From the NCBI GenBank assembly GCA_963701965.1, contig OY969695.1, positions 4,896,001 to 4,960,000 on the forward strand: a DNA stretch of 64,000 bases. Reading direction: 5' to 3'. Shown one piece after another: positions 42,915 to 44,522 of the stretch. The translations under genes were made by a program, and so were the position numbers. The stretch comes from an uncultured Gemmatimonadales bacterium (lineage in GTDB: Bacteria > Gemmatimonadota > Gemmatimonadetes > Gemmatimonadales > Gemmatimonadaceae). The notes under the pieces were generated by a model that had not been told where the DNA came from, made no database searches, and saw nothing but the letters and a program-made list of their open reading frames with translations. The stretch's first letter is position 1. Every line of letters begins with the position of its first letter.

Positions 42915-44522
42915 ATGTCACTGAATCGACGCCGGTTTGTGGGGACTGGGGTTGCCGCCGCCGCCATGGTCGTTGCCCCCCGGCCTCTCGTGGCAATCCT
43001 CGATCGCGTGCCGGAGCCCGTCACCCCGGTGGAGGATCCGCAGGTCGCGGAGCTGGCCGCGCGCGGGCTGGAGAGCGCGCGCGGTGCCGGCGCGGTCTAC
43101 GCCGACGTCCGTCTGACGTACACCCGCACGCGGCGATTTCTAGAGATTAACGTCTCCGATGAAGAGGACATGGAAGTTGGGGTACGCGCGCTCGTGGACG
43201 GGTACTGGGGATTCGCCAGCGGACCGGTCTGGAGTCCGGACGAGATGGCGCGCCTCGGGCGTGAGGCCGTGCATCAAGCCAAGGTCAATACGCTCGGCAA
43301 GCCGCGTGACGTAGACCTCGCGTCAGTGCCCGTCGTGCAGAACGCGCACTGGACCACGCCAGTCCAGGTCGATCCGTTCGCGTTGTCTCCATTCGAGGTC
43401 CAAGACTATCTCGCCGCTCTCCGCATCTGGACCGAGCAGTACGGCGTCCAAGGCGCGGCGGGTCAGGCCTTCGCCATCGTCCAGGACGAGGTCTTCTCGT
43501 CGACGATCGGGAGTTATTGCACCCAGCGCCGATACTGGACGGAGGGGACGCTATCTGGCGAGGTGCACGTGGGAAACGAGCGGGGCGGGGTCTCTCTGCC
43601 GTGTCTCTCCCGGGCGGGCATGGGGTGGGAGCTCTTCACCGCCGACCGCATCCCGCGCGTGCGCGACCACTCCCTGCGTGACGAACTCCGCCTGCGCGCC
43701 GAGGAGTCCCGCGCGCTGCTCAAGCTGCCGCTCAAGCCGATCGATGTCGGACGATACGACGCCGCCGTCGACGCCACGAGTATGGCGCGGTTCGTCGATG
43801 CGACCCTCGGGCGCGCGACGGAGTTGGACCGCGCGCTCGGGTACGAAGCCAATGCGGGCGGCACGAGCTATCTGTCCGATCCGTCGGGGATGATCGGACA
43901 CTTTCAGGCCGGCGCTCCGCTCTTGACCGTGACGGCCAATCGATCGGAGCCCGGGGCCGCGGCGACGGTGCAGTGGGACGATGAGGGGGTGACGGCGGAC
44001 GACTTCCCGCTCGTGAAGAAGGGCGTGCTCACCGACTTCCAGACTACGCGGGAGAGTGCGGCCTGGCTCGCGGGCCCGTCGGCCGGTGCGCCGGCGCGCT
44101 CGCACGGGTGCGCCGACGCGCCATCGGCCATGTACGCGCCCATGACGCATATACCCAATCTCGTGATGGCCCCGGGGACGGCCGGGGACTTCGAAGCAAT
44201 GGTCAGCAGCGTCACCGACGGTCTGGCGATCACGGGGGCCAATCTCGAGATGGACTTCCAAGTGGCAACCGGGTTCGGGACGGGGACGGTCGTTGCCGTC
44301 AAGAACGGGAAGCGCGTGGCGCGCTTGTCGGGGGCGGGGTTCCTGTTCCGATCGACCGAGTTCTGGAAGTCGCTAATGGCGATTGGCGGTGAGACGGCGC
44401 TGCGCCGGGTGGGTGCCCCGGCGCTCAAGGGTGAGCCGCCGCAGGTGTGCTACCACAGCGTGACGGCGCCGCCCGCGGTCGTCAAAGGGCTCACGCTCAT
44501 CGACCCGTTGAGGAAAGCATGA
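42915..44522 (+). CDS. TldD-family protein with Tat signal and degenerate zinc motif (copy 1)
   Basis: NRRRFV Tat motif; GAVYADVRL, GVRALVDGYWGFA, ELDRALGYEANAGGTS, WDDEGV, KGEP.Q. Confidence 0.88.
   Translation: MSLNRRRFVGTGVAAAAMVVAPRPLVAILDRVPEPVTPVEDPQVAELAARGLESARGAGAVYADVRLTYTRTRRFLEINVSDEEDMEVGVRALVDGYWGFASGPVWSPDEMARLGREAVHQAKVNTLGKPRDVDLASVPVVQNAHWTTPVQVDPFALSPFEVQDYLAALRIWTEQYGVQGAAGQAFAIVQDEVFSSTIGSYCTQRRYWTEGTLSGEVHVGNERGGVSLPCLSRAGMGWELFTADRIPRVRDHSLRDELRLRAEESRALLKLPLKPIDVGRYDAAVDATSMARFVDATLGRATELDRALGYEANAGGTSYLSDPSGMIGHFQAGAPLLTVTANRSEPGAAATVQWDDEGVTADDFPLVKKGVLTDFQTTRESAAWLAGPSAGAPARSHGCADAPSAMYAPMTHIPNLVMAPGTAGDFEAMVSSVTDGLAITGANLEMDFQVATGFGTGTVVAVKNGKRVARLSGAGFLFRSTEFWKSLMAIGGETALRRVGAPALKGEPPQVCYHSVTAPPAVVKGLTLIDPLRKA

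Follow-up and report, generated by a model that had tools for sequence, protein, structure and literature searches.

The stretch of DNA analysed here (the window) comprises 64,000 nucleotides of an uncultured Gemmatimonadales bacterium (GenBank assembly GCA_963701965.1, contig OY969695.1, positions 4,896,001 to 4,960,000), whose 5.12-Mb, single-contig genome is called G000 below; other G numbers denote genomes and L numbers denote the loci that we examined. The window contains two cassettes in tandem, each with the gene order ECF (extracytoplasmic function) sigma factor, FecR, SusC, SusD-like lipoprotein, Ig-like (immunoglobulin-like) lipoprotein, TldD, TldE, X and M16 peptidase, where X is a protein encoded 3' of TldE that combines a TPR-like part with a thioredoxin fold. 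The TldD of these cassettes (hereafter, cassette TldD) lacks the metal-binding motif of its family, and its sequence makes the loss of metalloprotease activity highly probable. The features that bear on this loss are the following:

42915..44522, + strand: cassette TldD copy 1, intact, with a twin-arginine translocation (Tat) signal RRRF at 42927-42938 (Pfam PmbA_TldD; model pLDDT, the predicted local distance difference test score, 90; top fold match Escherichia coli TldD)
43797..43814, + strand: DATLGR, replacing HExxxH in copy 1 (sequence; profile alignments)
44421..44438, + strand: ALKGEP of copy 1, with Ala at the third-ligand position and the Lys456 equivalent retained
58041..59673, + strand: cassette TldD copy 2, with a Tat signal, NATLGR at 58941-58958 and a frameshift near 59210

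In E. coli TldD, according to the available text of PMC5810440, the metal is held by His262, His267 and Cys454, Glu263 is aligned with the Glu that serves as acid and base in thermolysin, and the His262Ala mutant is inactive; the same text calls the HExxxH of TldD strictly conserved, treats TldE as the sole dead half, and notes that in Gemmatimonas an Asp stands in for the Cys ligand. In copy 1 of the cassette TldD (open reading frame (ORF) 42915-44522), DATLGR is followed by ATELDRALGYEANAGGTS, and copy 2 carries NATLGR at the ligand helix and AQKGEP at the C-terminal site; two other TldDs in the same genome keep the metal motif (IHESIGH/LHESVAH and DGKGQP). Because a direct sequence search of the cassette TldD against solved structures returned nothing at E 0.001 and a profile search gave weak TldE matches only, the register was set via active relatives. 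A profile of 32 active Gemmatimonadota TldDs was aligned with E. coli TldD (5NJ5_A, E 5.9e-19), which laid IHESIGHPTELD on LHEAVGHGLEGD, and the window family was then aligned with the active profile from end to end by profile-profile comparison (probability 100%), in which VDATLGRATELD fell on the active-motif helix and ALKGEP on DGKGQP, both gap-free. The resulting equivalences to E. coli are D295 to His262, A296 to Glu263, R300 to His267, H412 to Arg362, H514 to Val463 and A503 to the third ligand, the last of which is based on the x-G-K common to both and on the available text of PMC5810440, as HMMER opens a gap of three columns where E. coli has CGK. An earlier note on this DNA, made from the letters alone, had claimed that both TldDs lack the zinc motif, and this holds in the aligned register (DATLGR and NATLGR versus HEAVGH in E. 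coli). It had also measured the C-terminal site against a Cys-type motif; the change itself stands, with Ala at the ligand position in ALKGEP and AQKGEP, but the third ligand in the active TldDs of this lineage is Asp (DGK), not Cys.

The loss extends across the homologues that we collected, in three overlapping sets; the named homologues are from Gemmatimonadota. HExxxH is found in none of the best 120 of 1,241 matches (the window's own protein included), in none of 85 locus rows, made up of the window copy and of ORFs taken from 79 stretches, the best of 470 that matched, and at the site in none of the 150 best representatives at 50% identity, among which the single pattern match sits at residue 94. 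Among the 85 rows, His occurs at position 295 in three, Glu at 296 in eleven and His at 300 in one, and position 503 is Asp in 1 and Cys in 0 of 80 locus rows. No sequence has His, Asp, Glu or Cys at all three ligand positions, and such residues occupy two of the three in 7/150, 2/80 and 26/117 sequences. The structural clamp tethers are retained in the locus rows, the Asp272 equivalent in 85/85 and the Lys456 equivalent in 78/80, so the ligand columns have degenerated while structural residues stay fixed. That the same loss is present in every clade member examined supports the earlier claim that the change is no indel error, and speaks against chance or a sequencing error. In a FastTree phylogeny of 138 TldDs longer than 430 residues, 41 active sequences separate from 97 motif-less ones with a split support of 1.0, the tree having no outgroup from another phylum and the direction of loss being taken from E. 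coli. The motif-less side consists of a 92-member cassette clade (support 0.984) and five sequences from G062 and G130, and by this sequence evidence ligand loss marks a whole Gemmatimonadota clade. The sister group (L136 in G062, L137 in G130) consists of motif-less TldDs with Tat signals, NASIVNALEFDR, in tandem copies directly before MoxR-DUF58 genes, and no active TldD was found in G062 or G130.

The fold of the protein is retained. The AlphaFold2 model of copy 1 (pLDDT 90.3, predicted template-modelling score (pTM) 0.89) has E. coli TldD (5NJ5/5NJC) as its best match, with a Foldseek E of 2e-34 and a VIA Z of 33.8 at a root-mean-square deviation (rmsd) of 3.0 over 451 aligned residues, the comparison that the earlier note had proposed, and the domains PF19289 and PF01523 are matched at 72.9 and 25.6 bits. 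The full-length profile match to active TldDs, the ranking of E. coli TldD chains above TldE chains in the fold search, and the presence of a separate TldE downstream place the protein in the TldD rather than the TldE lineage. The cassette TldD thus belongs to the TldD fold and lineage but, by its residues, lacks the HExxxH and third ligand of active TldD (MEROPS family M103).

When the window copies are compared, the ratio of nonsynonymous to synonymous substitution rates (dN/dS, or omega, by Nei-Gojobori counts) comes to 0.185 and 0.189 in the two pieces of TldD and to 0.10-0.22 in the other cassette genes; over 15 sister pairs of cassette TldDs it is 0.31, versus 0.15 for 12 active pairs. 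A ratio near 1, which the earlier note had named as the mark of decay, is therefore found neither between the window copies (0.19) nor among the sister pairs, and the cassette TldD is kept by purifying selection and is not decaying. Newly fixed residues of the cassette TldD are W106, E110, L114, A301, A314, L416, G453 and D530, and those of the cassette TldE include R16, W54, R56, R74, C236, R272, E276 and W409. Column conservation revealed no newly fixed His/Cys/acid cluster in either protein, and hence no replacement metal site of the kind that would have spoken against the earlier note, and the TldE alignment revealed no metal motif gained by TldE. With all metal ligands and the catalytic Glu lost, no conserved replacement and purifying selection, the pseudo-protease status proposed in the earlier note is supported.

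The remaining genes of the two cassettes are the following:

35256..35822, + strand: ECF sigma factor, cassette 1 (tblastn with ECF copy 2; translation)
35856..36938, + strand: FecR-type anti-sigma factor, cassette 1 (Pfam FecR, FecR_C)
36935..40408, + strand: SusC/RagA-type TonB-dependent transporter, cassette 1 (82% identity to copy 2, which passes TIGR04056)
40350..41867, + strand: SusD-like lipoprotein, cassette 1, lipobox LSAC (label inferred from its position 3' of SusC; no Pfam or NCBIfam match)
41864..42913, + strand: Ig-like (Big_2) lipoprotein with a C-terminal cupredoxin-like domain, cassette 1 (Pfam Big_2; weak plastocyanin match, E 0.006)
44519..45965, + strand: TldE copy 1, whose start overlaps the TldD stop, without a signal peptide, frameshift near 44880
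45980..47364, + strand: protein X copy 1 (start approximate), frameshift near 46410
47361..50168, + strand: M16 zinc peptidase copy 1, with a signal-like N-terminus and HFLEH intact at 47583-47597 (Pfam)
50277..50909, + strand: ECF sigma factor, cassette 2 (Pfam Sigma70_r2/r4)
50956..52059, + strand: FecR-type anti-sigma factor, cassette 2 (Pfam)
52056..55508, + strand: SusC/RagA transporter, cassette 2 (TIGR04056 at 377 bits, above the cut-off; weak STN match, E 0.0075)
55450..56997, + strand: SusD-like lipoprotein, cassette 2 (label inferred; no Pfam match)
57003..58040, + strand: Ig/cupredoxin-like lipoprotein copy 2 (end approximate), frameshift near 57850
59670..61115, + strand: TldE copy 2, intact, without a metal motif
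61105..62508, + strand: protein X copy 2, intact, with a signal-like N-terminus (model pLDDT 90)
62511..64000, + strand: M16 peptidase copy 2, HFLEH at 62727-62741, extending past the window end, with two frame breaks just beyond it

Homologues of the SusD-like lipoproteins, which themselves have no Pfam match, are found 3' of other SusC genes in the genome. A scan for sigma-70 promoters returned 0 sites, and terminators were no more frequent than expected by chance. Immediately 5' of cassette 1 are a secreted S41-like peptidase (weak Pfam match, 32715-34217, + strand) and a membrane-anchored protein of no assigned family (34230-34985, - strand). Elsewhere in the window, the ORF at 6867-9632, which we take to encode a U32-type peptidase, has a near-perfect internal repeat of ~31 residues at about 8600-8700.

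The gene order was compared around 95 cassette TldD genes, each count being limited to loci with room on the contig and many loci sharing a genome, so that they are not independent. Downstream of the cassette TldD, TldE is present in 81/81 and X in 73/76 loci; upstream, the Ig gene is found in 77/89, SusD in 74/83, SusC in 65/74 and FecR in 51/60. M16 lies downstream in 27 of the 66 loci with room, and the last cassette slot is often held by an M13 peptidase instead, so that one or the other is in range in 32/66 loci of this first set; in 20 regions of G177 picked for density, M13 or M16 comes after 19 of the 24 X genes. The peptidase motifs are intact, HxxEH in all 30 full-length M16 homologues, including the window's HFLEH as the earlier note had stated, and the M13 motif in 22/22. 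The cassette is absent from all 27 regions (up to 20 kb each) that surround active TldDs, one of which (L120) has an unrelated susC/susD pair 2 kb away. When motif loss is mapped against genomic context, as the earlier note had suggested, the motif-less clade is tied to the SusC/D cassette, with the exception of the sister group of five in G062 and G130, which stands outside it.

Some neighbours recur around these modules. Genes that we take to encode a MoxR AAA ATPase and a DUF58-like protein follow the cassette at 4961265-4963703 of G000, just beyond the window, and at L013, L031, L045, L060, L064 and L085; such genes also lie 3' of the active tldDE of L132 and L149-L151, and this may be the ancestral location. 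A secreted protein of ~230 residues with weak Ig/fn3-like matches precedes some TldD-TldE-X modules (L069:10511-11209, L073:10499-11179, L071:9274-9966, L190, L191, L192), and its homologue adjoins the single active tldDE of G177. The M13 peptidases of L069, L073, L082, L047 and L177-L195 are secreted and short, about 450-525 residues with HExxH intact, presumably shorter than typical neprilysin-family members. A full cassette at L042 lies on a contig whose title names the Acidimicrobiia, which lack an outer membrane, and this contig is likely misbinned.

A Tat signal (RRx[FLMIV] within the first 45 residues) is present in 119 of the 150 representatives, and none of the TldE N-termini inspected carries a signal. 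Because the TldD stop and TldE start codons overlap, the two genes are adjacent, and the cassette TldE forms a clade of its own (support 0.997), the two proteins probably form a heterodimer; the behaviour of the Tat system is the basis on which we suggest that they are exported together. Twin-arginine signals are also present in the active TldDs of L006, L007 and L118-L135, which implies a periplasmic TldD/E protease, for which we found no description in the literature searched.

The model of X copy 2 (pLDDT 90) shows a helical TPR-like domain and a thioredoxin fold of the TlpA/ResA type, which matches 3GL3 with a VIA Z of 13.8 (rmsd 2.5, 135 aligned) and whose Atlas neighbours carry Redoxin/AhpC-TSA. 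CxxC occurs in 1 of 59 X homologues, several others having CxxxC or a long Cys-Cys loop and several having no Cys; the named homologues are from Gemmatimonadaceae. A predicted complex of TldD (38-535) with X (26-467) scored 0.55 versus 0.00 for the best control, with at least 91% of contacts agreeing between runs and a partner pLDDT of at least 76; the score passes a mark that 116/157 solved and 2/215 mismatched pairs also pass, and lies in the band up to 0.60, which is reached by only 18 of the 157 solved complexes and by both false passes. These models lend weak support to binding of X by the cassette TldD. In the cupredoxin-like domain of the Ig lipoprotein, the Cys-His-Met copper motif occurs in 0/69 homologues. 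Judged by such motifs, the cassette combines three folds that lack the catalytic or metal residues usual for them with a single intact peptidase.

The distribution of the cassette is patchy. By top matches, with at most nine candidates scored per genome, it is found in 4 of 151 genomes of the phylum (G000, G087, G048 and G027), a tally that is also the sole use made of the unpublished genome G055, and X is found in 3 of 41 relatives. On a model of active TldDs, built from the same alignment that it scores, active sequences reach 556-975 bits and dead ones 305-433. G087 (3.3 Mb, 98% complete) has 82 matches to this model, the best at 377 bits; its top six loci lack HExxxH, and exact motif matches are 33 of the dead type and 0 of the active type. 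G027 (99% complete) has one match, at 401 bits, and likewise no active-type TldD motif was found in it. Amplification is also high in G177 (5.3 Mb), with 93 dead-type motif matches versus one active-type and at least 150 PF19289 matches; a 180-kb stretch (G177:C1:80000-259999, L176-L184) holds 12 cassette TldDs and about 159 kb of cassette ORFs, an overestimate, as they were measured from stop to stop. Besides G177, active-type TldD motifs are present in G000, G048, G178 and G179. This expansion, the Tat signal, the partner X, the clade-wide cassette and the frame breaks described below had all been overlooked in the earlier note.

To account for these results we favour, tentatively and with a little under half of our confidence, an explanation in which TldD and TldE form a non-proteolytic periplasmic cage that holds peptides imported by SusC/SusD for the M16 or M13 peptidase of the same cassette, with X as an adaptor. 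Starting from the observed motif loss, fold, selection, Tat signal, gene order and intact peptidase motifs, we infer the following steps. Loci of the SusCD/RagAB type are under ECF/anti-sigma control, and a substrate at SusC/SusD would signal via FecR to the ECF sigma factor and induce that cassette. The cassette TldD and TldE would assemble in the cytoplasm and leave jointly via Tat, and X might dock on TldD as the adaptor, as the weak prediction suggests. As with RagAB and Fus, the substrate would be a small protein or a peptide, gripped by backbone beta-strand contacts without side-chain recognition, as in E. coli TldD, and cut by the intact M16 or M13 peptidase. We favour the holding of peptides by a dead cage because, in the available text of PMC5810440, the cleft of E. 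coli TldD is pre-formed and binds the backbone only, and the E263A mutant, which lacks Glu263, traps a hexapeptide.

Several results weigh against this explanation. Neither M16 nor M13 is in range in 34 of the 66 first-set loci, and SusC, X and peptidase genes are all absent from the roughly 10 kb on either side of the five motif-less TldDs of the sister group. On an approximate mapping of the cleft, its elements have an omega of 0.32 in cassette TldDs versus 0.08 in active TldDs, while the shell has 0.30 versus 0.17; the four ligand codons have 0.43, and residue entropy gives the same pattern, the cleft being no longer specially constrained. No diversifying selection was seen in the cleft with Nei-Gojobori counts on this mapping. 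The disappearance of the extra cleft constraint supports the loss of catalysis and is no argument for a conserved, side-chain-specific ligand site. With the loss of the clamp's metal tether and of the residue equivalent to the brace Arg362, the cleft may be remodelled. Asp/Glu295 pairs with His514 in 35/37 loci and 28/32 representatives and could fill the S1' pocket; from these sequences we take the pair to plug the former pocket in a single sub-lineage. The low band of the TldD-X score belongs here as well. Of the roles proposed in the earlier note, a cage feeding M16 or FecR is not established, with M16 after only 27/66 loci though M13 often takes that slot, and neither is a peptide binder, given that the former cleft shows no extra constraint.

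The equal constraint on cleft and shell would suit a cage that holds no cargo and acts as a pure scaffold or chaperone, either as a platform for X or by helping to fold or assemble SusC/SusD, the lipoprotein or the peptidase, a role that we consider possible but rather doubtful. The newly fixed residues outside the active site (W106, E110 and L114 in TldD; R16, W54, R56 and R74 in TldE), the weak TldD-X prediction (0.55 versus 0.00), the combination in X of a TPR-like part with a thioredoxin fold lacking CxxC, and the retention of a copy in nearly every cassette are consistent with it. However, the protein keeps its complete shell motif and its clamp tethers, which a role confined to the surface might not require, and although many SusC genes could rely on a single shared chaperone, every cassette has a copy of its own.

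It is unlikely that the pair is still a hydrolase with new chemistry, using a different catalytic or metal site such as Asp295-His514 with Cys/Ser/Thr512. The window protein does have D295, C512 and H514, and this set recurs in 74 of 117 close homologues, and about 20 close homologues also retain His at 300; furthermore, the title of a review cited in PMC10885120, as seen in the available part of that paper, has some TldD/E proteins as N-deacetylases. Nevertheless, the set is present in only 18/140 distant representatives and 28/81 loci, the omega of 0.43 at the ligand codons speaks against a site preserved there, and no catalytic-type residue is newly invariant.

The presence of FecR upstream in 51/60 loci, together with the inferred periplasmic location of both proteins, is compatible with a sensor, in which the cage would bind an imported product and relay it to FecR/ECF. 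We regard this as quite unlikely, as SusC has a weak match to STN, a domain that is the usual direct route from a transporter to FecR, and several TldD-TldE-X modules as well as the sister group stand without FecR. A decoy that regulates active TldD by competing for TldE or substrate could operate in the five genomes that also hold active-type motifs (G000, G048, G177, G178 and G179), but this is very improbable because carrier genomes without a detected active copy exist, G087 and G027 having best matches (377 and 401 bits) in the dead range and no active-type motif found.

That the genes are decaying or an assembly artefact is scarcely credible, since the motif is missing throughout the clade, in open frames whose omega is far below 1, in spite of the six frame breaks in about 30 kb of the two cassettes (in TldE copy 1, X copy 1, Ig copy 2 and TldD copy 2, and two in M16 copy 2 beyond the window), compared with 7-9 across the 144 kb of 111 other regions of this genome. 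These breaks, which could stem from local decay or from misassembly, do not account for the motif change. One intact copy is left of each downstream gene (Ig, TldD, TldE, X and M16), and both SusC/SusD pairs are intact. Subfunctionalisation from complementary breaks was considered and is not claimed, because the pattern is expected by chance 13-47% of the time.

Compared with known systems, the cassette TldD shares with E. coli TldD/TldE (PmbA; MEROPS M103; PDB 5NJ5; available text of PMC5810440 and PMC10885120) the fold, the tldD-tldE pair and the Glu270, Asp272 and Lys456 equivalents. It differs in lacking the His262, Glu263, His267, third-ligand and Arg362 equivalents, and in having a Tat signal, a SusC/D cassette and up to about 80-90 copies per genome; only the TldE half is dead in E. 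coli, whereas both halves of the cassette pair are. That a pair with two dead halves has nonetheless been conserved and multiplied to dozens of copies points to a use of the cage beyond proteolysis. The active Gemmatimonadota TldD/E proteins (L006 and L007 in this genome) have about 33% identity to the cassette TldD and share its Tat signal, ELDRxxGxEAN and SHGC, but keep HExxxH and Asp and, as described above, stand outside the cassette; they are the likely ancestral source of the cassette TldD. The available text of PMC10885120 and PMC12424672 covers active TldD/E pairs only, and we found neither a TldD without the motif nor this cassette described in the literature searched, which did not extend to a 2022 Microbiol Res review of TldD/E families or the supplements of PMC5810440. 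The annotation 'TldD protease' is probably wrong for many database entries (1,241 matches, of which the best 120 were examined), and the importer cassette, not described in that literature, comes from an abundant, poorly understood phylum.

The Fus and YddB-PqqL systems (available text of PMC6793856 and PMC6042079) likewise have a TonB-dependent transporter gene beside a secreted M16 peptidase, a slot that other proteases can fill. Their transporter is of the FusA type and they have been described in Proteobacteria, while the TldD cassette has a SusC/RagA-type transporter (TIGR04056) with a SusD-like lipoprotein; the available text of PMC6793856 makes no mention of TldD or SusD. By analogy, the cassette would work like a protease-associated import system, but with SusC. 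With RagAB, the SusCD utilisomes and polysaccharide loci (available text of 10.1101/755678 and PMC7618045) it shares SusC, a putative lid lipoprotein, a surface lipoprotein and many paralogous loci per genome, and it differs in its downstream genes, namely the dead TldD/E, X and the peptidase. Possibly, though we hold it with less confidence than the cage itself, these cassettes form a large family of loci for the utilisation of peptides or proteins, each with a dead TldD/E cage, in which the cage and X would be a new periplasmic peptide-binding protein or ratchet between SusC and M16/M13. If so, in the extreme genomes (about 80-90 copies; 12 cassette TldDs in 180 kb) they would occupy much of the genome and point to a specialist that lives by protein scavenging or predation, and such loci would be the Gemmatimonadota counterpart of the polysaccharide loci of Bacteroidetes.

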